In this document: in pieces, positions 20,952 through 60,252 of the stretch | Position numbering within the stretch: position 1 is the first letter of the stretch | How the letters are laid out: every line of letters begins with the position of its first letter | NCBI GenBank assembly: GCA_951406725.2 | Contig: OX597829.1 | Location: 11,036,001 to 11,100,000, forward strand | Reading direction: 5' to 3' | Length of the DNA stretch: 64,000 bases | Source of the DNA: Octopus vulgaris | Lineage: Eukaryota | Program-made: the position numbers and the translations under genes | The notes under the pieces: model-generated | What the model was told of the DNA's origin: nothing | What the model saw: the letters and a program-made list of their open reading frames with translations, nothing else | Database searches by the model: none

Positions 20952-21090
20952 TATATATATATACACACTCACAGATATCAGACACACATGTACACATTCA
21001 TATCTATGTATAATTATATTTATATATAAATATACATATATATATATAATTATTTGTATATATGCTTGTGTGTATGTATGTATATATATA

Positions 21091-21264
21091 GGCGCAGGAG
21101 TGGCTGTGTGGTAAGTAGCTTGCTTACCAGCCACATGGTTCCGGGTTCAGTCCCACTGCGTGGCACCTTGGGCAAGTGTCTTCTACTATAGCCTCGGGCC
21201 AACCAAAGCCTTGTGAGTGGATTTGGTAGACGGAAACTGAAAGAAGCCCGTCGTATATATGAGC

Positions 21265-21295
<31 letters not shown>

Positions 21296-21518
21296 TATGT
21301 TTGTGTGTGGGGGTATGTTTGTGTGTCTGTGTTTGTCCCCCTAGCATTGCTTGACAACCGATGCTGGTGTGTCTACGTCCCCGTCATTTAGCGGTTCGGC
21401 AAAAGAATAAGTACTAGGCTTACAAAGAATAAGTCCTGGGGTCGATTTGCTCGACTAAAGGCGGTGCTCCAGCATGGCCGCAGTCAAATGACTAAAGCAA
21501 GTAAAAGAGTAAAAGAGA
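21091..21518 (+). mobile_element. SINE-A, intact copy (tRNA-derived head, CORE-like ggcaccttgggcaagtgtc, internal microsatellite, CR1/L2-like tail)
   Basis: A-box tggctgtgtgg, B-box ggttcagtccc; tail gctccagcatggccgcagtcaaatgact...(gtaaaaga)n. Shows the empty Tx1 target site. Confidence 0.9.
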
Positions 21519-23086: not shown

Positions 23087-26000
23087 CTATGTTTGACTTT
23101 TGTTTTACATTTGCACAAGCTGGCTCCAAGTCTCATCCAGAGACCTCAAGAGACAACAAGTTGGAAGTTCATGTTGGTGTTATGCCTAGGGTGCCATATA
23201 TTTGGTTTTGTACTTAGTGTTGTACTAGTGAATGCCTAAAAAAAACCATACGAAAATTGTTTGTTTAAAACTTGAGATTACGTAGAAAGTATTTTGCGTA
23301 GGATATGAGCTGTTCCCATGAACACTATCTTTTGAATTTCTGCCATTTGGGGGTTTCCTGCTTTCTGAGTCAGGTGGCAATCAGCCCCTTTTGCTATCAT
23401 TCCCAGGGCACCTATGACAACAGTTATTGTTTTAGTCTTCAGGTTCCAAATTTTGCTGATTTCTATTTCAAGATCTTTATATTTGCTCAGTTTCTGGTAG
23501 GTCTTGACAGATACGTTTATATCGATTGGGACAGTCATATCAATGAGGAGGCCTGTTCTTTGTCTGAAGTCGTTTACTATGATGGGTGGCCTATTCGCGT
23601 CTATCTTTCTGTCAGTTTGAATGGTGAAGTTCCAGAGGAGTGAGATGTGGTCATTTTCAAGCACTGGAGGTGGTTTTTGTTGCCACCAGTTTTTATCATG
23701 GGGCAAGTCAGGCTTTTGCAAATTACCCAGTGAATATATTGTGCAGCTCTATCATGTATGTTGAGATACTCTGTAGGCGCTAGAAGACTGCACTTGGAGA
23801 CAACATGATCAATGGTTTCATTTTGTTGTTGACATATACGACATGTTGGGCTACTGCCGTTCTTTAATATGTTGGCCTGGTAGTTCCTTGTAGGTAGGCA
23901 TTCATCTTGAGCTGCTGTGATAAACCCTTCTGTTTCAGATTTTAAGCCAGAGGCCATTAGCCATTGATGGGTCAGGGCTTTGTCAACATCTGCATTATTC
24001 GGTCTCTTTGGGTATTTGCCATAGAGAGGTTTTTCTTGCCATTTACCATTCAGAATATCTAAGGCAGCATATTTAGTACGGGTTTTCATGCGCTTAGCTT
24101 TTTCTGTGCTTGTTTCTTGTATGTCTAATTCCGAAATTTGTTGTATTCGGAATTCACTTAGATATTCCTTTGCCTGTTTTGTTACTGAGTATGATGCTTT
24201 CTTGTTTTCATGTTTTAAGACAAGTTTTAACATCCAGTCCTCAGAGTTTTTCTGGTAGGTGTCTAGGCCGATTGTAGCAATCTTCATTGTTATTGCCAGT
24301 TGTAAAAGTCCACGGCCTCCCCCTTTTCTTGGCAGATAAAGTCGTTCTATATCTGCCTTAGAGTGGTGCATTCTATGCATTGTCAACAGTTTTCGTATTT
24401 TTCTGTCAAGCTGACATATTTCAGTAATTGACCAGTTAACGATATTGAAACTGTAAGTCACGACTTTTATGGCTAAAGCGTTGATCGCTTCGATCCTGTT
24501 TCTCGCATTCAGCTCTGTCTTGAGTATTGCTCTTTTTCTGCGATAACATTCTGTTCTGATCCTTTCCTTCATCGCTGAATGCCTTATTCCATCCCCTTCA
24601 ATTACCCCTAGGTACTTGTAGCTCTCTGCTGGGTCTAACTCTTTTATGACATTCTGCTGGTCGAGGTAAACATTGCATTCTGATTGCAAAAAGCTTTAAA
24701 TCATCCATGTAAATGAGATGATTTATATTTTTACCAAACATTTTATATCCGTACTGTGCGTCATTGAGCAATTTTGAGAGAGGTATTAAGGCTAAACAAA
24801 AGAGGAGTAGTGATAGTGAGTCACCCTGGAAAATGCCACATGAAATTTTTACATCACCAGCATTTAGAGATTCACCGTCACTGTTCAAAGTTAGTGTGGT
24901 TCTCCATGATCTCATACTTACAGTCAAAAAGTTTCGCAGGGTAGGTGCTATTTTATACATTTCCAGACATTTCTTTATCCAGCTATGTGGTAGGCTATCA
25001 AAAGCCTTTTTATTGTCTATCCAGGCTATTGATAAGTATTTGTGTCGTTTGTGACAATCTTCTAAGATCATCTTATTGATGAGTAGCTGATCTTTACAAC
25101 CATAGGATCCACGTTTACATCCTTTTTGTTCATTAGGGAATATGCTGCTCTCTGTTAAAAAACTATAAGTATATTCCGTCAGGACAGATGTTAGCGTTTT
25201 ATACATAGTTGTTAAGCAGGTTATGGGTCTATAGTTTTTTGGTTCATTTGTTTCTTCACTTTTTGGGAGCAAGAATATTAAACCATTAACTAGCCAAGGA
25301 GGCATCCTACTAGGGTGTTGCAAAACATCATTGTACAGTTCTGTTAGCAGTTCATGGCTCTCTGGGAAGGCATTCAGCCAGAAGTTAGGAATTTTATCCT
25401 TTCCTGGAGACTTCCAATTGCTTGACCTCCTGAGAGCAGATCTTATATCTTCTACCTTGACACCCTCCCACTTTTGCTCTTCTAAGGAGTCCAGTTGTGT
25501 AGATATTCTATCAATTCAAGGGGCCTTTTCGTTGTGTGTTTTTTCTTCTGCCCCAATTTTATTCCAAAAATCGTGCACTTCTTTTGATGGTACAGACTTT
25601 ACAGTAACTGCTGTTTTCCCTATCTTCCTGTAAAAATTTTTGTGGTTATTTTTGAACATGTTGTCCTTGAAGAATCTAACACGCTTTTCATACCTCGCTA
25701 TGCGGGCAGCTTTAGCAGATACCTATTGCTTGATGGTTTCTATGGTGGCATCAATATCAAGTATAGTTTTCATATATTCTTTCTTTAATTTTGGGGTTTT
25801 TGTAGGTTTGGTAGTCTTGTCAACCTTAAGGTTTTTCAAACATTCAATGTCAGACCTAAGTAGTTTAATTTAATGTTGGATACGCTCCTGCCAAGAAGGC
25901 TTTTTGTGGGAATGTTGCCGTTTTCTAATCTTTACACCACATAGGATCGTTGAGATTTTCGCGGATGCATAGTACAGGTTGTTGAGATCTGTGATATTAA

Positions 26001-27820
26001 CATCATTAGCTGAAATTATATCCTTAAGTGCAAGGCGGATTTTACCAATTATTTTCATGTTTTGGTTAGAGTTGTGGATTCTCGGGAGTGTATCGCGTTT
26101 ATCCATAATGGTTTCTTTAATTTTCAGCCATTCAATCATGATTTGATTTTTTAGCTCATGTAGTTCTGTTGGGTCAATATTTGTGTGACTTTCTTTATCT
26201 ATTTGATGTTCATCTGTCTTAGTGTTTGTGATTGGTTCAGTGAGTATTTCACTTTGCCAATCAGTTATACTAGCTCTTCCAATCCTTACTGCGTTTTTAT
26301 CAGCCCTGGGCTGGTCTGTAATTATTTCCTCTGTATTATCTTCTTTAACTGCAGCTTCGTTCATTCTATCCGTTACTGCTTGTCTAATTTGATCAATCTC
26401 TACTTCAGTCAGTAATTGTTTTTTATAATGTTTCTTCTGACGTTGGCAGGTTTGTTACTGTCTGTGTAGGGTCTTACTTCAGGGTGTTTCTGTCTCCAGT
26501 TTATGTAGGTTTGTATAGTGTTAGATTTATCTTTGGGGAAATATATGGCATGGTAGAAGGCCATAAGAGCCTCTTTATTATCTTCCCGAGACCATCTTTC
26601 ATTCTTTTTCTCTTGGTTATTTGATGACGGGCATGGATGGCCATCTGTTGGAATATTTCGGTTGTGGGGTACGTCCAGCTCCTGTGTGTATGGAAGATTT
26701 AAACCAGTGGCTGATTTTTCAATCAGAATTTGGTTCAATGTACGGGTTTGTGGTATTTTGTAAACCGATCAATGACCATTGCGGTTTGTAATTTGTTTTG
26801 TTGACATTGAGGCATGACGAGCTTCGGCTGTTACATTAGGAGTCGGATCTGTTAGTATAGGGTTAGGTTTTTGCGACTACACCGCATCTGAACGTAAACA
26901 TCGCTCGTAGGGTAATTTCTTAAGGCTAGCAGATCTGTATTCGCCTGTATTTTTTTGTTTATAGAATTACCTCCGCACATAGTTTTTCTTGTAGTGTTTT
27001 TTAAACTTATGAAGGGTTCACTCTGTCTGTGTTAGTTCGAAAAAATGATAGTAAAATAAGAAGAAAACAAAAAGATCTGTCGGTAAAGGGTTCAGTTCTT
27101 GCGACGACACCGTCTCTGAATGTAAACATCACCTGTAGCGTAATTTCTTAAGGCTCGCAGATCGGTATTCGTCGGTATTTTTCTATTTATAATTTTGTTG
27201 TTGGTAGATTTACCTCCGGACATGGTTTTTTACTTCTTTGTGGTGCTTTTTACCCTTATGAAAGGTTCACTCTGTCTGTGGTAGTTCGAAAAAATGAGAA
27301 GTAAATAAGAAGAAAAACAAAGAAAGTTTTGATTTTGTTTTTGCTTGTTTTGTGACACGTTTTTTCACGTGCGTGAGTGTGTGTCCTGTAAATTTCACTT
27401 AGTGTGTTCAACTTTGGGATGTATGTGTAGTCCTATGGGTATCAAAATGTATATATGATCGTGTAGACATTCGAGTGTATGCGTAATTACTCAATTTATG
27501 TACTCACTATTTTTATTTATTTTGGTCCGTTTCTATTTTAATCTTTCCAGTGTTGATATCGTGCGTGTGTCCCGCACATGTTTCCTTGAGACACCGTGCG
27601 TAGGAGAAACTGTACTTTCTATGGCAGTAAAATTTCGTTTTAGTCTTAGTGTCTTCGTTAAAAGGTCGCTTCCTTCGAGTTTTCCTCAAGTTCCTTTATC
27701 TAATTCCATCGATGTTATTGGATTAGATTTGTTTTTGAATGGAGAGACCGGTTTAGTACATCCATGTTGTTATTCAGTGCGGGCTTCCTTTCTCCTTATT
27801 ATTGTTCGGCTTCCTCTCTC
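23087..27820 (-). mobile_element. R4/Dong-clade non-LTR retrotransposon (RT + CCHC + restriction-like endonuclease), near full-length, degenerate, in (TAA)n
   Basis: NYRPITCL, AWIDNKKAFDS, GIFQGDSLS, YMDDLK, CRICQQQNETIDHVVSKC, RP.IIV.D...LIDMTVP...KYKDL, VVIGALG; (TAA)n on both sides. Confidence 0.92.
23278..26738 (-). pseudogene. Dong/R4 single ORF, multiple frameshifts and two RT deletions near 24670-24690
   Basis: ORF pieces 26738-26409, 26364-25870, 25323-24598, 24689-23601, 23721-23278; compared with the second copy. Confidence 0.88.
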
Positions 27821-29028
<1,208 letters not shown>

Positions 29029-32000
29029 CTATGTTTGACTTTTGCTTTGTGCTTGTACAAGTTGGCTCCAAATCTCACTCAGAGACCTCAAGAGACCACA
29101 TGTTGGAAGTTCACGTTGTTGTTATGCCTAGTGTGCCATATATTTGGGGGGGGGGGTTGGTGTTGTACTAGTGAATGTCTAATAAATAAATTTTTTTTAA
29201 AAAGAGTTTATTTTAAACCTTGAGATTACATAGAGAGTATTTTGCGTTGGATATGAGCAGTTCCCATGAGCACTATCTTTTGAATTTCTGCCATTTTGGG
29301 GTTTCCTGGAATCTGAGTTAGGCAGCAATCAGCCCTTTTCGCTATCATTCACAGGGCACCTATGACAACAGGTATTGTTTTAGTCTTCAGCTTCCACATT
29401 TTGCTGATTTCTATTTCAAGATCTTTATATTTGCTCAGTTTCTGGTAGGTCTTGACAGATACGTTTATATCGATTGGGACAGTCATATCAATGAGGAGGC
29501 ATGTTCTTTGTCTGAAGTCTTTCAATATAATTTCTGCCCTGTTTGAATCAATCTTTCTGTCAGTTTGAATGGTGAAGTTCCAGAGGAGTGAGATGTGGTC
29601 ATTTTCAAGCACTGGAGATGGATTGTGTTCCCACCAGTTTTTTTTTTTCATGGGGCAAATCCAGGTTTTTGTAAATTACCCAGTGAATATATTGTGCAGC
29701 TCTATCATGCCTGTTGAGATACTCTGTAGGCGCTAGAAGACTGCACTTGGAGACAACATGATCAATGGTTTCATTTTGTTGTTGACATACACGACATGTT
29801 GGGCTACTGCCGTTCTTTAATATGTTGGCCTTATGTTTCTTGTTAGTAGGCATTGATCTTGAGCTGCTATGATAAACCCTTCTGTTTCAGATCTTAAGCC
29901 AGAGGCCATTAGCCATTGATGGGTCAGGGCTTTGTCAACATCTGCATTATTCGGTCTCTTTGGGTATTTGCCATAGAGAGGATTTTCTTGCCATTTACCA
30001 TTCAGAATATCTAAGGCAGCATATTTAGTACGGGTTTTCATGCGCTTAGCTTTTTCTGTGCTTGTTTCTTGTGAGCCTAATTCCGAAATTTGTTGTATTC
30101 GGAATTCACTTAGATATTCCTTTGCCTGTTTTGTTACTGAGTATGATGCTTTTTTGTTTTCATGTTTTGAGACAAGTTTTAACGTCCAGTCCTCAGACTT
30201 TTTCAGGTAGGTGTCTAGGCCGATTGTAGCAATCTTCATTGTTATTGCCAGTTGTAAAAGTCCACGGCCTCCCCCTTTTCTTGGCAGATAAAGTCGTTCT
30301 GTATCTTCCTTAGGGTGGTGCATCCTATGCATTGTCAACACTTTTCGTATTTTTCTGTCAAGCTGACATACTTCAGTAATTGACCATATTGAAACTGTAA
30401 GTCACGACTGGTATGGCTAAAGCGTTGATCGCTTCGATCCTGTTTCTTGCATTCAGCTCTGTCTTGAGTATTGCTCTAACTCTTCAATAACATTCTCTCC
30501 TGATCCTTTCCTTCATCTCTGAATGCCTTATTCTGTCCCCTTCAATTACCCCTAGGTACTTGTAGCTCTCTGTTGGGTCTACTTCTTTTATGACATTCTG
30601 CTGGTCAATGTTATCGTTAGATGTTTCTGTCATTTTTCCTTTGATAAATGTAGCTTTTGCACATTTATCGAGGCCAAATTGCATTCTGATGTCGTCACTG
30701 AATTGTTTGACTATCGCTAGTAAGCCCTTGAGTTGTTGGTCATTTTTTGCAAAAAGCTTTAAATCATCCATGTAAATGAGATGATATATATAATTATCAA
30801 ACATTTTATATCCGTACTGCGCGTCATTGAGCAATTTTGAGAGAGGTATTAAGGCTAAAAAAAAGAGGAGTGGTGATAGTGAGTCACCCTGGAAAATGCC
30901 ACATGAAATTTTTACATCACCAGCATTTAGAGATTCACCGTCACTGTTCAAAGTTAGTGTGGTTCTCCATGATCTCATACTTACAGTCAAAAAGTTTCGC
31001 AGAGTAGGTGCTATTTTATACATTTCCAGGCATTTCTTAATCCAGCTATGTGGTAGGCTATCAAAAGCCTTTTTATTGTCTATCCAGGCTATTGATAAGT
31101 ATTTGTGTCGTTTGTGACAATCTTCTAAGATCATCTTATTGATGAGTAGCTGATCTTTACAACCATAGGATCCACGTTTACATCCTTTTTGTTCATTAGG
31201 GAATATGCTGCTCTCTGTTAAAAAACTATAAGTATATTCCGTCAGGCAGATGTTAGCGTTTTATACATAGTTGTTAAGCAGGTCATGGGTCTAATTTTTT
31301 TGGTTCATTTGTTTCTTCACTTTTTGGAAGCATGAATATTAAACCATTAACTAGCCAAGGAGGCATCCTACTAGGGTGTTGCAAAACATCATTGTACAGT
31401 TCTGTTAGCAGTTCATGGCTCTCTGGGAAGGTATTCAGCCAGAAGTTAGGAATTTTATCCTTTCCTGGAGACTTCCATTTGCTTGACCTCCTGAGAGCAG
31501 ATCTTATATCTTCTACCTTGACACCCTCCCACTTTTGCTCTTCTAAGGAGTCCAGTTCTGTAGATATTTTGTCAATCCATGGGGTCTTTTCGTTGTGTGT
31601 TTTTTCTTCTGCCCCAATTTTAGTCCAAAATCCCTGCACTTCTTCTTTTGATGGTACAGACTTTACAGTAACTGCTGTTTTTCCTATCTTCCTGTAAAAA
31701 TTTTTTGGGTTATTCTTGAACATGTTGTTGTCCTTGAAAAATCTAACACGCTTTTCATACCTCGCACTGCGGGCAGCTTTGGCAGATACCTTTTGTTTGA
31801 TGGTTTCTATGGTAGCATCAGTATCAAGTATAGTTTTCATATTATATTTCTTCATTAATTTTTGGGTTTTTGTAGGTTTGGTAGTCTTGTGAATCTTAAG
31901 GTTTTTCAAATATTCAATGCCAGATCTAAATAGTTTAATTTGATGTTGGATACGCTCCTGCCAAGAAGCCTTTTTGTGGGAATGTTGCCGTTTTCTAATC

Positions 32001-32382
32001 TTTACACCACATAGGATCGTTGAGATTTTCGCGGATGCATAGTATAGGTGGTTGAGATTTGTGATATCAACATCATTAGCTGAAATTATATCCTTAAGTG
32101 CAAGCCGGATTTTACCAATTATTTTCATGTTTTGGTTAGTGTTGTCGGGAGTGCATCGCGTTCATCCATGCTGGTTTCTTTAATTTTCAGCCATTCAATC
32201 ATGATTTGATTTTTTAGCTCATGTAGTTCTGTTGGGTCAATATTTGTGTGACTTTCTTTATCTATTTGATGTTCATCTGTCTTAGTGTTTATGATTGGTT
32301 CAGAGAGTATTTCACTTTGCCAATCAGGGAGTATTTCACTTTGACAATCAGGTCTATAATCATTTCCTCTGTATTATCTTCT
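29029..32382 (-). mobile_element. Second, 5'-truncated copy of the same R4/Dong family
   Basis: Highly similar to 23087-26343; same 3' terminus next to (TAA)n; RT, CCHC and RLE motifs. Confidence 0.92.
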
Positions 32383-34972: not shown

Positions 34973-35222
34973 TATATATATATGTGTGTGTGTGTGTGTG
35001 TTTGCGTGTGTGTGTGAATAAATATTTTATAGCAGTTCTATAGAATTATTTCATAGGCTAAATAATCACCGTAAAGGTAAAATCATAAATAGAAAATAGC
35101 GGTTCTAGATGTAAGACAAATACTTTTTTTATATTCGTTCTCCGCACACATCTTAGCCAGTATACATTCAGTGAAGCTTTACATAGGAGCAGGAGTAGCT
35201 GTGTGGTAAGTAGCTCGCTTAC

Positions 35223-37251
35223 TGCTACCAAGTTGTCGCGTTGTTTTTCGTCGCGGTGGAAGTCATGTCGTACGTGAAAAATTGAACATTTGAAGCATGA
35301 CCACAGGTAAAGCATTTGGTTTTTGGGAGCTTAGTGGGGTCTGCTGTTTGTATTTAAGTATTTTTTCGAACAGGGATCTCCACTGGGTTCCAGGCATTTT
35401 TTTGCCAGGAGTCATGCAAGAAGATTCACTTCGTAGTGAGAATTGAGTTGGGAGGCGCGTCCCTCCGAAAATGTTTTGGAATTTTCTATGACTGTGTTTG
35501 TGCCCTTTCAAGATTTTTACCATAAAGGATAAGAGTACAGCCAGAGTTGGACGGAATACTATTTGTGCTGTGAAGGACTACCAGTTTGGATTACCAGAGT
35601 AGCAGAATTGTGTTGTGTTGCCATTTTCGACTATCTTCCTTCGCTCTTTCTTCTCCTGTCTGTCTTTCTGATCATTTTTGAGTTTCTTTATAGACTTTCA
35701 TTTGAACATTTTGATTTTTGTTTGTGGATTTTTATTATTTTTGTTTTGGCTATCAACATGGCAACTGTGAAATCCGCTTTGGAGTGGAAAATTGTGGCCC
35801 CCGAAAAATGGTTGAAAAATTATACGGAGAGAACGGTGGTGTTAAGGACTTGTTCCAGGGTCCTTGACACCATCAAGGTCTTCTCTCAGGAAGAAATTAA
35901 GGAGTTGGCAGACTATCTGCAGGGGGGAGAAGTATGGAACTGTGTGTGTACTTTTTGACGCCCCTGTGGAAGCACGTGATTTTACGAGCATGCTTTGGAG
36001 GGGGAGAAAATTTTGTTTCTCCCTACTTACGGCGGTAGAAAGTTGACAAGAGCCTGGATGTGTGGTCTGCCACCCGGTATAGAGGCCGAGTGGAAAGAAG
36101 ATACTATCCGTCGGGTCCCGGGTGGCGGGCCTGCCAGGCTTTTAAATGTAAAAATGTGGCCTGCGGTTGATTGGGTTGGGTCAAAAGCAATTTTGACCCT
36201 ATGGATCCAATCAGTCGATGATCTGGTTTTACCAGATTTTTTAACAATGGCCGGTTCCAGGTATCTGGTGATGGTTGAGGGACGTCCCCCCAAGTGACAT
36301 CTGCGCCTGGAATCGGGCCATATAAAGAACTGTTGCCGGGAACAGACAGGGGTCTGGAACAGTTGGCTGAAAAGGTGTCCCCTAGTCCCCCACTGGAGGA
36401 AAAAGTCGAGGAGGAGGCAACATCCTCGAAAACAAAGGGGGAAAAAGAAAGAAGGGGCAACAATGGTTTCCTACCGATGAATCCTGAGACGGCGGGGCGG
36501 GGGTCCTCCGGAGATGTCGGAGGAATTCCATCCTACCGTCGTAAAAAGAAAAAAGAAGAGAAAGAAGAAAAATGGGGCATTGCCGGCGACGGCATGTCCT
36601 GAGATCACTTCGGTTGGATGTGTGCAACCAGAGCGGAGAGAAGATAACCTCGTCATTCGGATGTGTGCCACCGAGCGAGGGAGTTGAGGCCCCTCCCAGT
36701 AAAAGTGGTTAAGAATATATGTTCTATCTCAGTGGAAGAGCTATTGACAGTTTCGTGGAGAATGATATGGATAATCGGGTCCTGAGAAACCTGACTTGTA
36801 TAGACAGCCCAGAGTGGCCTTCGCAGGTGGCTGCTCTGGTGCTGGAAAGAAAGTACTGTGATCTTAGAATTGACTCATGTAAAAACGAGAATTATAGAAT
36901 TCTTTTTTGGAGACCCGGATTGCAGTTTCAGGAATGCCTGCAAGTTGCAAGGAAATTGCACGGGGAAGATTTGTAGAGGTTTATCGCCTCTAATTTGTGT
37001 ATAAATTATGTTTTGTATTTGTGTAGACTTTTGAGTTCAAATATATTGTATTTTAAACTGTAAGAGGGTTAATACCTCTGTATATGTGTTTTTAAAGAAC
37101 AATGTTTTAAAGAAGCAGAGGGTCGGCGGGCGCTTTCTCTCTTCTCCCATCCTTATCATCTTGTATCATTATCATTCGCCTCATCAATGTCTTGTCTAGC
37201 CCGCAAAGCTACCCATCTCTGTACTGCCTCTATGGCAAATGAAACGAATAA
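35223..37251 (+). mobile_element. ORF1-only (HAL1-like) non-autonomous Tx1-related retroelement
   Basis: 15-bp TSD (35208-35222 / 37252-37266); decayed ORF1 homologous to the Tx1 ORF1 at 59848; no EN/RT; 3' TGCC-N5-GGCA hairpin + AATAAA. Confidence 0.85.
35758..36976 (+). pseudogene. Tx1-like ORF1 protein, frameshifted, decayed zinc knuckle
   Basis: TERTVVLRT, RGEKYGTVCVLF, LFLPTYGGRK, VMVEGRPPK*HLRLESGHIKNC align with EKRTVVFKT, RGRAYGTVDVRF, VLFPSYRGRR, VQVEGRKPTCYACGKKGHIRVDC. Confidence 0.8.
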
Positions 37252-37628
37252 AAGTAGCTTGCTTACCAACCACATGGTTCCGTGTTCAAGGCCACTGCGT
37301 GGCATCTTGGGCAAGTGCCTTCTATTATAGCCTCGGGCCGACCAAAGCCTTGTGAGTGGATTTGGTTGACAGAAACTGAAAGAAGCCCGTCGTATATATG
37401 TATATATATATGTATGTGTGTGGGTGTACGTTTGTGTGTCTGTGTTTGTCCCATGAACATTGCTTGACAACTGGTGCTGTTGTGTTTATGTCCCCGTAAC
37501 TTAGCGGTTCGGCAAAAGACCGATAGGATAAGTAGTAGGCCACAGACAAATGACTGAAACAAAAGAGAATAGCGTCGTGTGGTTATCGACTGCTATTTCC
37601 AGAAAACATTGGTGCCTTGTTGTACCAC

Positions 37629-52859: not shown

Positions 52860-54275
52860 TTACCCGTTTCAGCCATGAGGCTGCGGTCATTCTGGAGCAC
52901 CACTGTGGTCTTTCTAATTTCCTCAGTCGCGAGTATTTAGCATTACCACTCTTGTATATGCCTTTGTTATAGCTTTTGGCCCATTTAGTGTATAAGGGAG
53001 TTTGTTCCCCTTGCCCTCATCTGCATCTCATGTTAGGCTGTTGGTTCATCTGGTATTGTGGAGAAGAGGATGTCTAGTTCCTTTTTGAAATCATCTACTT
53101 CCACCTGATGCAGATTTTAAAAATTTTTGTGGCAAGGCATTGAAGAGCTGTGGGCCTCTAAACCCTAGTCTATTGTAGTATGCATCCTGAATTTTGATGG
53201 AGTGGTTGGTGCGTTTGGTACAATACAATGGCGGCCAGTTCTAATATTTGTATAACACTCAATGCCCGAAATTAGGTACCTGTCCTAGAGTTTTTCATAT
53301 GTAGATTATTGCACACCTCTCGCGTCTTCGCTCCAGGGACTAAAGATGCAGTTCTCTCAGCCTATCCTTGTAGCTCATCCGCTGCACTTTCAAACTCTAT
53401 AGCATAGTAGCGTTAGACTGCTTCAAGCTCCACTGTTACTTTGGTACTGTGTGGTGACAATAACTGGGAGCAGCAGGGTCAACATAGTTTCTTGGTTTCT
53501 TGTCTTGGAGGAACTCAGCATCCATTCTGCCAGTTGTTTGCACTTGGCTGCCATTTTGATAATATGCATATGAAATGATGCGTCATTGCACATACTGATC
53601 CGCAAGTCTTTCTCTGCCTGTAACTCTAGGATTGTAGTACCTTCGGGTCCCTTATATGTCGGCTGTAGTGCATTCATGACTTGATAGTACAGTATTTGAA
53701 ATTTTCCAGCATTAAACTGCATGTTGTTTATTTCGGCCCACTTGTATATCGAATTCAGGTTCCGCTGTAAGCTTGCGATGTCATGATTTTTTGTTGCCTG
53801 TGATAATTTTGTATCATCGGCATGGCTAGTGACAGTGGCTGTCCAAGTGAACGTGGGCATGTCTAAAAGGGTTATTATGAACAGTAATGGCCTCAGAATA
53901 GTTCCTTGGGAAACGCCACTTATGATTTGAGTTTCCTCAGAAAGGGCACCATTGGCTGCAACTACCTGACTTCTGCCTTTAAGGAATTCATGCAGCCACT
54001 CTCCTACTTTACCAGCAATGCCAAGGTTTCGTAGCTTATGAGATATCATGCCGTGATCTACCTCAACAAATTCCTTTGGAAAGTCAAGGTATATCACGCT
54101 GACGTATGAATGTTTCAAAACCCAGTCAAAGTACTGCAGGAGTTGTACGAGGAAGCCTCTTCCTGGACGCAAGCCATGTTCTGTATTGTTCATTTGGTCA
54201 TTTTCTTTTAGGAACATTATCAGCTTCTTTCTGATGATTCGCTCCATGACTTTACTAATAGACACTGGCCTTTAG
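52860..54275 (-). mobile_element. 5'-truncated CR1/L2-group LINE (degenerate RT + 3' UTR)
   Basis: VIYLDFPKEF..VDH, SGVSQGTILRPLLF, HADDTK, WAEINNMQFN..K, EKDL; the 3' end matches the SINE-A tail. Confidence 0.85.
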
Positions 54276-54387: not shown

Positions 54388-55005
54388 TCTTTTACTCTTT
54401 TACTTGTTTCAGTCATTTGACTGCGGCCATGCTGGAGCACCGCCTTTAGTCAAGCAAATCGAACCCGGGACTTATTCTTTGTAAGCCCAGTACTTATTCT
54501 ATCGGTCTCTTTTGCCGAACCGCTAAGTGACGGGGACGTAAACACACCAGCATTGGTTGTCAAGCAATGCTAGGGCGACAAACACAGACACACAAACATA
54601 TACACACACGCTTATATATATATATATACATATATACGACAGGCTTCTTTCAGTTTCCGTCTACCAAATCCACTCACAAGGCATTGGTCGGCCCGGGGCT
54701 ATAGCTGAAGACACTTGCCCAAGATGCCACGCAGTGGGGCTGAACCCGGAACCATGTGGTTGGTTAGCAAGCTACTTTATTTCATATAATTTGCCATTTA
54801 GGCATTTACAAAGAGGGGACAAACAAGGACAGACAAATATAAAGGGTGAAGTAGCTTAACACAGTTACAATTTTCGAATGAAATTACGGATAAGATTATA
54901 AACAATGAATTTTACGAAGGCAATGTTTAAAAATATTAATGATCATGTCGAAGGACGGACACCCAGCCATCCGGGTAGAACCTTTACTTTCTGATCCGGT
55001 CACAC

Positions 55006-58000
55006 TTACCTGGTGCCAAACATACCGATCTTGTATGCCACAGGCTTCCATCTTTTCACAAACATATCTCGTGACAGACACCTCTTCTCCAGCCTGATTT
55101 TGCTACAGAGGTGGTAACTAAAAAAGTTAATCAACCCCTGGCCGGAGACAAAGGTGCCTGTCACTATACCTTTCGTACGCGTCTTCCATACTGTTTCTTT
55201 CAGTATGGCTACTACACAGAAAAAACAAGCCTTTCTTTCCCTGTTAAGGAAAGGGGGCAGCACAATCTCGATGATAGACTCAGCTGATAGCTGTACTCTT
55301 CCCATCACTGACAACAGTTGTTCAACAAAAGCTATCAGTCCCGATAACTCCGGACACTCCACGAATGCGTGCAAGACGGTCTCCCTATCCTGCTCACATC
55401 GCGGGCATGTCGGCGAGACGGCACTACCGTGCCTTGAAAGCTTGTCGCGAACAGGTAAAGCCGCACGGAAACACTGCCAGGCTAGGGATTTCTGGTAATT
55501 ATACAGATACCCCGGCCCGAACGTCCTCCGGAACAGGTTGACCAACTGATTTTCATCGTAGCCCAGGGTCTCCCCCAAGGCGTCTTCGGACTTAATCTCC
55601 ACTAACCCGCTATAGAAATCCGTGGTGGAACTCCTGTTGCCGGCGTTGCCCACCCGAGATAGTAGCTGGAGCGCCTGACGGCACTCCAAATGCCGTTCAC
55701 TCAGTTTAGGTCTCCGCTTGATCCATGCACCGATGTCCGTTAGGGATGTTAACTGGGGAAGGTAGAACCGGACGTGCGGCGACCACACCTGCTCTCCATC
55801 CAGGTAAATACAGAGGTGCCTCAACCTTAACGCGAGTTTTCGCATCCTCAGCCAAGGCATCCCTAGCCCACCCTTCAGCGGTTTCTGGCAGCAGACAGAG
55901 CGCTTTACAAGTGGCTTTCCTCCTTTCCACAAAAATCGGAAAAGGATTCTCTCCAACTTGTTCAGCCACAAATCGAGGCAAGGCACCACGGTCAGACGGT
56001 AGGTGATTACTGATGCTATAAACATCTGCACCACCTCCGCCTTCCCTAGCAGGGATAACGCCCGCCCAGACCAGGTCTGGGTTAGAGCGGTCACCTTGTT
56101 GGCCACCTCACTCCAATTTTTCTCAATCTGGATCTGGCCCGAACCAGACTCCGAGCAGCTTAACAGGACCTTCCGTCCAACGCCCTACGACGTTATTGGA
56201 CGGCATCGGCTTGCCCCTCCAGGTGCCGAGTTGCAAACCGACCGACTTGTCCTTGTTAACCTTTGCTCCTGCCACCGCCTCGTAGCTTTTGATGGCCTCT
56301 TCCACCACTGGAAGCTGGCCTTCGTCTGCCACGATGATGGAGGTGTCATCCGCATACGCCGTAGCTCCTCTTCCACACCATAGATCATGCGGCGCGCCCC
56401 CTAGTGCCTCCAACTTCCGCAGCAAAGGCTCAAGAGCCAATACGTATAGGAGCGAGGACAGGGGACACCTTTGACGAACTGAACGCTCGATCCTGAACGG
56501 CTTCGAAAAGGAACCGTTCACCTTGACTACAGACTCGATGTCGCTATAAAAGCAGCGATCCAACCTCGAAAGGTCGGGCCTAGGCCAGCCTCTCCGAGGA
56601 CCGCCGCCAGGTACCGATGGTCGACCCTATCATATGCTTTGGACTGGTCTAAATGTACCAGTGCTCCCCCTGCGCCAGAAAGCTTCCTCACCCTCTCTAA
56701 GGAGTAGTGTATAAGGTGGAGATTGTCGTGGATCGTTCTGCCGGGGATAGCGCACGTTTGCGCTTCCCCGACAAGTTTGTCCACGACCCGCGCCAACCTT
56801 TTTGCTAGCACCTTGGCCAGAATCTTTAACTCTGTGTTTAACAGAGTTATGGGCCTGAAGTTCCCTATCTCGTCCCCCTTGTTCGGGTCCTTCCTGATCA
56901 ACGTCACCGCCCCCCGGCTCGCAGACTTGGAAATCCTCCCATTCTGCTGCCAGTTGGCGTAGACGCTAGCCAGCAGGTGCCCGAACAAGTCTGGCATACT
57001 TCTATAAAATTCATAGGGCAGACCATCGAGACCCGGCGACTTCTCCCCGGGGCACTTGCCCAACACCTCGATTACTTCCTCGGCTGTGATTGGCCCTTCA
57101 CAGCACTCAGCCTCTCGTGTCGAGAGGCGCGGGCCACCAGACAGGAAGTCCCTAAGGGCCTCACTTTGATCCAGCGTCCCGCACCTCCCGAACAACTCGG
57201 CGAAGTGCTTGTGAAGTGCCTCACACATCTCGTCCCGCTTCTTGATCGTGCATCCGTTTTCATCAACAAGAGACCCAATTGTGGCATCGTTTCCACGCTG
57301 TGTTTCTATCGTACGGGCCCATCCGGCAACATTAATTCCCTCACGGCCCAATGCTCGTACTTTAGCCCGGACTCTACATCCCTCATGTTTGGTTTTGAGG
57401 TGACGGTCTAATGCCGTTCTCGCCGCTAAAATGTGAGATGCAGAGCCCAACCTCAACGCCTCCTCTAAGTTCTTAACTAGTTGCCCTTCTATTCTAGCCC
57501 TATCTAGTCTTAGTTGTTTACTAAATCTAATGGACTCGAATCGAATGGCTCTTTTGAGGGTGAACCACCACCGGTTATTAACCACGGCTCCGGTTAACGC
57601 CCTCTGCACTAACACCTTAATCCGGCTACGGTATGCCTCGCGTGTCAAAATAGACTTGTTCAGCTTCCAGTAGCCGGTTCCTATCTTAAGTGTGCTATCT
57701 ATGTCCAGTCTACACGTGACCATTCTATGGTCAGTATAGGGCGCCTGGACGAGCTGTGGACAACTAAAACTAGACTTATCTCTAGTTCTTATCACTATCC
57801 TGTCTAGATAAGACTTGAACCTTCCGTCGCCACTCATCCAGGTCCACTCTGGGACGTTCGGATGGTCAAGTCTGTAATGATCTGCTAGCTGAAACCGCTT
57901 AAGCAGATCCACGAGACGTGAGTTCACTTTCCTATAGATCGAGCCAACGCTATCGATGTGTACGTCAACGATAGCATTAAAGTCCCCTAATATCACTAAA

Positions 58001-58404
58001 GTCTTCGACGTCACGAGAAAGCCCTCTAGGCGCCGATAAAAATCAGTTTGGAAACCTCTAGCACAAGGTGCATAGAGTCCGATCAACCTGAAGGCCTTAC
58101 TGCTGTATGTCACATCAAGGACGACCAGCCCACCTTCTGGGTCTACATAGACTGTACTTGTCTGTAGAGCCAAGTCTTTACGGATCAGTACCACTACGCC
58201 CCCTCGCCCTCCGGTCTGGCCAGGAGACATGATTTTCTCGTAGCCATTCAGGAGAGGCGAGAAGGTTTGTAGGCTGTCCAGCTTGGTCTCTGTAGCAACC
58301 ATCACATGTATATCATGTGATCTGAGGTCGTCGAGGAAACAAGCCTGCTTCCACTTCGAACTCAGACCACGCACATTTAAACAACCAAGGTTAAGCGAAG
58401 CCAT
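55006..58404 (-). pseudogene. Tx1 ORF2 (apurinic endonuclease, reverse transcriptase, C-terminal zinc finger), two frameshifts (~56545, ~56115)
   Basis: LNVRGL, TETK, LGDFNA, SYLDRI, TDH, GYWKLN, KSPGLDGLP, NFRPITLLN, LDQSKAYDRVDH, RQRCPLS, YADD, GGLGMP, CPRC...ETVLHAFVEC. Confidence 0.95.
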
Positions 58405-58421
58405 TACAAAAAGTAAAAGTT

Positions 58422-59848
58422 CTACTTACATTTCGTTGGAGGGGTGGGGGCCGACCTCACCACACGTTTGTGGGCCCCTTCTTTCTCCTCTTTCTTCAGA
58501 TAGTCCGGCAAGTTCGCGATATGCCGGATGGCGTTTGGGTGTCTGTCTTTTAATTGTTTGAACGTTGTTTCCGCAATCCACGCGTGTCTATTTCGATCTT
58601 TGTATTTGTTGTACAGTCTTGCTGACTGATGCTGAACCACAATATCGTTTATGTATTTGTCTTGTGTGTCGAATTCAATTAATATGAGTTCATTTTCTTT
58701 TTTGTCTTCTTTTTCTGGGCCAGTTGAGCGGGATTTTTTTTTTCGTGTCTGTGGTGTGTCTTTGTTTTTATTATTTTTTGTAGGGGATGTGGACGGGGAT
58801 GCTGCACGAATTATTTTACGAACTGGTGTAAATCCCCCCTCTGATACCTTCATGGTATCGTCTGGGGTAGCAATAGTTTGTTCGGTAGGCGCCGCAGTTT
58901 TTAGGGGGTGGGAGGTTTTAATAGTGTAGGGGTTTGTGAGTGCGAGGGCTGGGTTTTTTCTTCAGTCTGTTTTGGGGTTGGCACCGTAACGGCAGGAGTG
59001 GGATTTTTTGTTTTTGTAGGGGTAGGTGTGTTTGCAAGGGTAGGGACTTTTTTATTATCTGAGGGGCCTGGTGTCTGCGGTTTCTTTTGCTTGTCTGGAC
59101 AGTCTACACGAATGTGGCCCTTTTTGCCGCAGGCGTAACAGGTGGGTTTTCGGCCTTCGACCTGTACCCTGAGGGCTACGTTCTCGCCCACGAGCACCCT
59201 CTCAGGAAGGAGCTGAAGGTCCTCCGCTGTTCCTTGAATTAATATATTAATGTTACGCCCGAGCCAAAATCGAGGGGTAGAGCATGTTACTTCTAGTATT
59301 TTTATTTTGTCCGCCCTTTTATATAGCAGGGCGGCCACTACCTCTACCGGATCTACTTCCGGCGGGGCTTCTACAATCCTGACCCGGGACGTCCTGCGTC
59401 CCCTATAGCTTGGGAAAAGTACCACCTCCTTGGTTTTTAGGGGGTTCCCAGAATGACCGCGGGCCATTTCTTCCCCTGAGAAGCGGACATCCACAGTGCC
59501 ATATGCCCGTCCCCTGGCGACGTACACGATGTCCTTCCAAATCGGGGACAGGCATTTCTCGATGGTGCTTTTTTCAAAGTGTTTGAACCTTCTGCTTTGT
59601 GGACAGAAAGTTTTAAACACTACGGTCCGCTTCTCGGTCTCCACGATACTGGCGGAGGGTGATATTTTAACATCACCACCCTCCTCTTGCATTCTTTTAA
59701 ATAGCTCGACGAGCTGGTTGACATCGATGTCAATGTTGTCGGTAGCCACTGCGGCTACCTCAGAAAATTTTTTAACATTGCTCTCCTCAAGAGCACTACT
59801 TTCGTGAATAATTTCAACAGACATTATTCTGTTGAAATTAGACAACAC
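58422..59848 (-). CDS. Tx1 ORF1 (RNA-binding, CCHC zinc knuckle), one frameshift near 58900
   Basis: CYACGKKGHIRVDC, then a Pro/Thr/Lys-rich tail continuing in ORF 58853-58422. Confidence 0.88.
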
Positions 59849-60252
59849 AAAAATTACGAGTATTGGTTTCCCACAAAACTGGGAAACCTATAGAAAGTTT
59901 TTCTTCCAAAGTAGTTCAAAAAAGCAGTTCAAAAATTCCAATTCCCACCCCCATTCGGGGGAGGGGCACGAAAATAGTCTGGCAGGACTATATATAGTCA
60001 CGTAAATAAAAAGCCACAGTGGCTAACAGTTCAACGGTAAGAAATTATTCAATTATTTCCCGGTAAAACCGGAGAACAAGACAGTTCAGCAACGTTTAAA
60101 GGCAAATTTTCAGTAGTAGGAATTCAACAATTAACAACACAGCAAAACTCTTACCGGGAAGAAAACGCGTCCACACCGTAGTACGGTAGGCAAAGTCACT
60201 CTTCTGTCAGTGAGGTTAGCAAAGCTACTTACCACACAGCCACTCCTGCGCC

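Follow-up and report, generated by a model that had tools for sequence, protein, structure and literature searches.

The window, by which we mean the whole 64,000-nt stretch of Octopus vulgaris DNA analysed here, contains a 2029-bp ORF1-only element (35223..37251, +) inserted in a tRNA-like SINE. The element opens with a 5' UTR of 535 bp (35223..35757, +; 548 bp in the family consensus), which is followed by a decayed ORF1 (35758..36976, +; ATG at 35758, stop codon ending at 36976) and a 3' UTR of 275 bp (36977..37251, +), exactly as an earlier sequence-only reading of this DNA had placed them. The ORF1 of this copy has 5 stops and 9 small deletions. Its layout comprises two RRM-like domains, a CCHC knuckle near 36292, a disordered basic linker, and a short C-terminal region, with the fold borrowed from the intact ORF1 of a sister family. 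The 3' UTR holds a predicted hairpin, TGCC-N5-GGCA with a 4-bp stem (37225..37237, +), which is common to the neighbouring Tx1-type LINE, and AATAA(A) follows downstream (37247-37252, +) with no poly(A) tail.

The host SINE matches, in both its head and its body, an uninterrupted copy at 21086..21500 (+), which provides an empty-site reference. Its 5' piece contains the A-box-like half of the promoter (35183..35215, +) and is 92.5% identical to the intact SINE over 35183-35222, and the remainder, including the 3' target copy (37252-37266), extends over 37252..37519 (+) at 82.7% identity in 294 columns. Rfam and ARAGORN gave no name and no tRNA for this SINE, so the label “tRNA-like” leans on promoter-box-like motifs, the A-box and B-box in the head being assigned by eye. 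The octopus SINE names OK and OR are not equated with it. A 15-bp direct repeat, identical at 14 of 15 positions, lies at both flanks of the element (35208-35222 and 37252-37266), in keeping with the earlier description of the element as bounded by a target-site duplication. That description holds for the proximal part of the 5' repeat (35208-35215, closing the SINE head piece), which by junction comparison looks truly duplicated; the distal, TSD-like part (a variable junction base plus GCTTAC, 35216..35222, +) behaves as element-borne and is probably a 5' target mimic.

The same SINE site is occupied elsewhere in the window by a 5438-bp autonomous LINE on the reverse strand (54776..60213, -), with ORF1 at 59824-58422, ORF2 at 58404-55006, and the hairpin at 54804-54792 (all -). 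Both ORFs are frameshifted in this copy and full-length in another (L039). The ORF2 matches the Pfam families Exo_endo_phos (APE endonuclease), RVT_1, and zf-RVT, and its best solved relative is human L1 ORF2 (E 1e-66), which places it in the L1 group. We call this LINE Tx1-type on the basis of its anatomy and its sequence-specific insertion, all 23 listed copies lying at the target, rather than of an RT phylogeny. At least 22 full-length copies of its subfamily are 96-100% identical to the window copy, while older copies of the lineage with the same tail show 78-86% DNA identity to the young consensus; among the best 150 endonuclease matches, identity grades from 100% to about 73% and then falls to 61-69%. 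The window also contains two RT-bearing LINE pieces (RVT_1, zf-RVT) about 5.95 kb apart at 23278-32161 (-), with a long AT-only repeat between them near 27500-29000, and an unrelated decayed RT fragment (RVT_1; 53423-54271, -) just downstream of the SINE that hosts the Tx1-type LINE.

We searched the 2.8-Gb genome for relatives of the window element. The DNA search gave at least 56 matches (40 of 2635 candidates scored), and of the 30 loci cut out, 14 held near-full-length copies. Aligning 26 copies gave a consensus of 2086 bp with a single open ORF of 419 aa bearing the CCHC knuckle; an intact ORF1 was not found among these aligned copies. Twenty-five copies are 87-95% identical to the consensus, the family being about 7% diverged (one misaligned cut-out, L024 at 46.5%, was excluded from the identity and dN/dS figures). 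In each of the 25 copies that have a 3' end, the ORF1 stop is joined directly to the 3' UTR, and no endonuclease or RT matches were found across the 30 loci; the consensus likewise gave nothing significant against the neighbouring ORF2 (best E 0.026). The copies are SINE insertions dispersed over many contigs rather than telomeric, and together with the target duplication and 5' truncation this indicates that the family amplified by retrotransposition of its own. These results confirm that the window element is a genuine multicopy non-LTR retroelement with ORF1 and without ORF2, and the earlier reading, which would have failed had the element been single-copy or had other copies carried an ORF2 between ORF1 and 3' UTR, passed on both counts. 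The single ORF1 in the consensus and the dN/dS below 1 that it proposed to look for were also borne out, dN/dS between families lying well below 1. In the alignment of L001-L029, the diagnostic positions of the 5' UTR give another grouping of the copies than those of the 3' UTR, a hint that subfamilies have recombined.

Selection on ORF1 was evaluated by the Nei-Gojobori method between family consensuses over codons 6-205. The dN/dS values range from 0.08 to 0.47 over 28 family pairs, mostly 0.1-0.3, with 0.14-0.35 in the seven pairs that involve the family of the window element and 0.12-0.19 in four close pairs (dS of at most 0.4); dS exceeds 1, near saturation, in many distant pairs, and the highest dN/dS values come from family F7, whose consensus covers only about 117 codons. 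As a control, copies compared with their own consensus gave 0.72 and 20 stops in 24 copies, a value that we take as the neutral baseline given the observed transition bias. The ORF1 of the ORF1-only families is thus under purifying selection. Pfam found no match in the ORF1s of clade A, the group that includes the window family. From an alignment of 6 rows, AlphaFold gave a model with confidence limited to residues about 10-200, which match tandem-RRM proteins (E 2e-5) with low TM-scores, and the CCHC knuckle comes next. The named closest relatives of the window proteins are from Octopus and Argonauta. In Octopus sinensis, one clade-A ORF1 is annotated as an uncharacterized protein (P0001), and another clade-A ORF1 sequence lies inside an annotated host protein with an integrase Pfam match (P0002), a join that is probably a gene-model artefact. 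With no RT and no Pfam match, such elements are likely to be left unclassified by standard repeat annotation or to be called as genes, as in P0001.

The window family is one of many. A search with the pattern hairpin plus ATAAA plus target gave 725 matches in the genome and none with the reversed control, and we read 89 of the first 100 listed junctions, omitting 8 with young Tx1 tails and 3 units of one seven-unit array. Among these 89 elements, 66 carry ORF1 without ORF2, 6 carry ORF2, all belonging to one Tx1 lineage, and 17 show neither. When the omitted junctions are added according to their tails, there are about 69 ORF1-only and 14 autonomous elements (16 with two short autonomous-type tails), that is, about 4-5 ORF1-only elements to each autonomous Tx1-type element in this sample. 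The junction elements cluster into seven multicopy ORF1-only families and many singletons, with lengths of 2.0-2.3 kb. Families F0 and F1 are young, their copies being 98-100% identical, like young Tx1, and both include intact ORF1s; one locus (L116) holds intact ORF1s of 414 and 415 aa in tandem, and a protein search revealed many further open frames of 416-422 aa.

In the ORF1 tree, which is rooted at the midpoint only, clade A is monophyletic (16 rows and an Octopus sinensis protein, support 100/100, stem 1.62) and sits far from the Tx1 ORF1, as the earlier reading had anticipated. The consensus ORF1 of the window family is 26% identical to the neighbouring Tx1 ORF1 over 300 aa (E 1e-19), in line with its description as homologous yet strongly diverged, and clade A as a whole is only 26-28% identical to Tx1 ORF1, its nearest autonomous counterpart; the best 150 hits per query included no close autonomous parent that carries a clade-A ORF1. 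A separate clade B (seven ORF1-only rows, 98/98) lies nearer the Tx1 ORF1, to which it is 39% identical. It is thinly sampled, 6 of 40 chosen clade-B-like loci having been read, and none of these 6 further loci showed a downstream endonuclease within the 2.6 kb read. One clade-B element (L172) shares the hairpin and target at its end. Five others (L168-L171 and L173) have ends lying away from the SINE target, some in tandem units of about 1.6 kb, and four of the five end in CCC-N5-GGG plus TAATAAA at another site; they are possibly partners of another Tx1, and the G-C to C-G change in their stem is a single hint of covariation. Two origins of ORF2 loss, in clades A and B, would be the simplest reading of this tree, which does not resolve its basal branches.

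The families exchange parts and share arrays. A mosaic family (F5; L157, L161, L163) combines an ORF 92-95% identical to F1 with a 3' part 86-94% identical to F0 and a distinct 5' UTR, which shows exchange between families. Mixed arrays of Tx1 and ORF1-only elements occur at L052, L093, L110, and L116. At G000:C1:223692258-223706788, seven junction units of about 2.0 kb stand in tandem and are followed directly by a young Tx1 copy. By-eye comparison of 150 listed endonuclease places with two 150-place lists of clade-A ORF1s gave one pair at ORF1-ORF2 spacing (L174; G000:C4:127356150-127357500, -), where a young F0 element (99%) runs, from a point inside its 3' UTR, into Tx1 sequence (98%) that covers the ORF1 end and the ORF2 start. 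This junction is single-copy, and we reject it as a family with clade-A ORF1 and ORF2; its origin is a template switch or a deletion in a tandem pair.

Insertion is specific to one position. In the window family, the target was found at 25 of 26 5' ends and 22 of 25 3' ends, and genome-wide all 20 exact 5' ends fall at one site of the tRNA-like SINE; ORF1-only elements and the Tx1-type LINE both insert between the halves of the SINE promoter boxes. When the target was omitted from the pattern, hairpin plus ATAAA gave 1724 matches as compared to 32 in the control. By eye, the target adjoins about 75 of the first 100 of these tails, 59 in its common form and 16 in a second SINE variant, while about 25 have no target downstream. 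The roughly 16 tails of this second kind abut the SINE-head variant GAAGCTTGCTTCCC, suggesting that some families have adapted to another SINE subfamily.

At the 3' end, Tx1 and the ORF1-only elements share, besides the target, the last ~25 nt (TGCC-N5-GGCA plus AATAAA). For the window element, the last 24 nt are the sole notable DNA match to Tx1, which upholds the previously noted likeness of the two 3' ends. The last ~150 nt of the 3' UTR are conserved in all clade-A families (z 22-65, as compared to about 2 for young Tx1), and upstream of the last 35 nt it bears no clear resemblance to the UTR of young Tx1 (z about 2); longer homology to older Tx1 copies is not convincing, although one older-type UTR reached z 6. 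The hairpin stem never varies, so covariation cannot prove its pairing, which is predicted; in comparison with shuffled sequences, folding energy did not single the hairpin out (z -0.78 for the window 3' end, -2.07 for Tx1).

At the 5' end, all 23 listed young Tx1 copies have TAACC on the 5' side, and four of them have TTAC on the 3' side; F0 shows TAAC on all 14 5' sides and TTA on three 3' sides, and in all seven such discordances of Tx1 and F0 it is the 5' side that carries TAAC. In Tx1, 8 of 23 copies have one-base insertions clustered midway along the 5' repeat, and in the window family the middle repeat base is other than T in 8 of 14 5' copies as compared to none of 14 3' copies. We infer that the 15-bp repeat consists of a true duplication of about 8 nt and an element-borne target mimic, which is probably common to the helper Tx1 and its ORF1-only partners.

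Taken together, we put at roughly 85% the probability that the window element is an ORF1-only non-LTR element of the old, self-perpetuating clade A, packaged by its own ORF1 and moved by the SINE-targeting Tx1 lineage; the shared target, shared ends, and age argue for mobilisation in trans by the Tx1 ORF2. Drawing on established biology of target-primed reverse transcription, the element RNA would be packaged by its own RRM-RRM-CCHC ORF1 protein and would present its 3' hairpin and AATAAA to the Tx1 ORF2, whose endonuclease would nick the SINE and whose RT would copy the RNA, while a short 5' target copy may help to join the second side. Because nicking and copying would be done by the Tx1 ORF2, target specificity would be borrowed, and because each insertion would restore the target at both ends, mixed tandem arrays could build up. 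The window family is older than the neighbouring Tx1 subfamily, which is therefore too young to have moved the window copy. An older subfamily of the same lineage was probably the mover, and the younger sister families are contemporary with young Tx1. The earlier proposal that the neighbouring Tx1 is the partner thus stands at the level of the lineage and gives way to an older subfamily for this copy.

The element could instead be ORF1-only and yet have been moved by another autonomous LINE, undetected or extinct, with a clade-A-like ORF1 and the same target by chance. The low identity between clade-A and Tx1 ORF1s and the presence of further Tx1-like endonucleases at 61-69% identity speak for such a LINE, which we nevertheless regard as improbable, since the ORF2-bearing junction elements (6/6) belong to one Tx1 lineage, the young clade-A families are of the same age as young Tx1 and stand in tandem with it, and the comparison of endonuclease and clade-A ORF1 lists (150 each) gave only the single-copy chimera. 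It is a good deal less probable still that the whole SINE-ORF1-SINE composite is mobile, through the LINE partner of the SINE or by segmental duplication, so that the site is merely inherited, and the data already largely refute this. SINE does flank nearly all copies on both sides, as a mobile composite would predict, but 5'-truncated pieces, 51-336 bp long, separate the SINE head from the target at L090, L096, L109, L120, L134, L135, and L146, different families are stacked with the target repeat alone between them, and copies of one family occur in different SINE variants with different outer flanks.

Had a one-off or recent internal deletion in the neighbouring Tx1 produced the element, the shared target and the shared last 24 nt would be accounted for, but we give this origin next to no weight: sequence comparison and the ORF1 tree refute it, as DNA similarity is absent outside those 24 nt, protein identity is 26%, and the family is older than that of the neighbour, with many copies and many sister families. 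The view of the element as an independent ORF1-only lineage rather than a recent deletion derivative accordingly holds, with the amendment that there is a radiation and a second lineage instead of one.

More tentatively, and as a reading that we consider possible but would not favour, the locus may belong to a three-tier system, in which a SINE is the target, a Tx1 splits the SINE promoter, and at least two independent ORF1-only radiations outnumber the helper, with a swappable 3' address of ~25 nt and a 5' mimic. The ORF/tail mosaic of F5 and the clade-B branch with a CCC-N5-GGG tail at another site are what a swappable address would look like. In the boldest form of this reading, the ORF1-only proteins would take an active part in the Tx1 particle and set its activity, whether as helpers or as competitors; if so, the system would amount to a retrotransposon that is split and modular, and to a minimal natural recipe for inserting RNA site-specifically in trans. 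Independently of this reading, the 3' ends of helper and partner have no more than about 25 nt in common, which suggests that ORF2 recognises a minimal RNA signal. Intact helper and partner copies exist, so the system is directly testable, as is the question of why a non-autonomous element retains its own ORF1.

ORF1-only LINEs are already known, and the comparisons that follow draw on the available parts of the cited papers. HAL1 of mammals is non-autonomous, encodes ORF1p only, and arose several times (PMC5753468); it derives from the L1 clade (PMC5786205). The octopus element is likewise ORF1-only and non-autonomous. Unlike HAL1, which is A-tailed and not known to be site-specific, it is Tx1-type and sequence-specific, with an RRM-RRM-CCHC ORF1 and an end formed by hairpin and AATAAA without poly(A); its CCHC ORF1 and its relatives in Octopus and Argonauta set it apart from a HAL1 proper of mammalian L1 derivation. 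The non-autonomous LINEs with ORF1 that PMC5786205 describes come from the Jockey, L1, and CR1 clades, and Ag-Sponge of Anopheles, of the CR1 clade, is grouped there with HeT-A and HAL1; the list in its available part includes no member of the Tx1 clade.

Among Tx1 LINEs, Tx1-Mar with SINEU of crocodilians and Xenopus Tx1 in Tx1D target other transposons, and the non-autonomous partner in the Tx1-Mar/SINEU case was inferred from shared target and age (PMC4494074). Those systems have non-coding SINE partners and DNA-transposon or LTR targets, whereas in the octopus the partners encode protein and insertion is into a SINE head. The supplement of PMC13282606 gives L1-Tx1 families and, in its available part, does not mention ORF1 or non-autonomous forms. 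In the literature searched, which includes the available parts of PMC4161310, PMC4758252, PMC9115989, and PMC8967140, we found neither an ORF1-only LINE of the Tx1 clade nor a SINE-targeting Tx1, and a sequence-specific, Tx1-type, SINE-targeting radiation is apparently unreported there; Repbase, Dfam, and deposited libraries may hold entries.

The closest parallel in evolutionary pattern to the octopus radiation is given by HeT-A and the other telomeric Jockey elements of Drosophila, which are ORF1-only, need the ORF2 of another family, and form head-to-tail arrays, with repeated loss of ORF2 and monophyletic clades of 2-6 ORF1-only families (PMC13534243). Loss of ORF2 is seemingly absent from non-telomeric Jockey elements (PMC13534243), so a shared, regenerating target may favour it. 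The HeT-A type is of the Jockey clade and telomeric, whereas the octopus elements occupy one site in a dispersed SINE with no evident host benefit, and they extend the ORF1-only LINEs to a sequence-specific, Tx1-type system that radiates outside telomeres.
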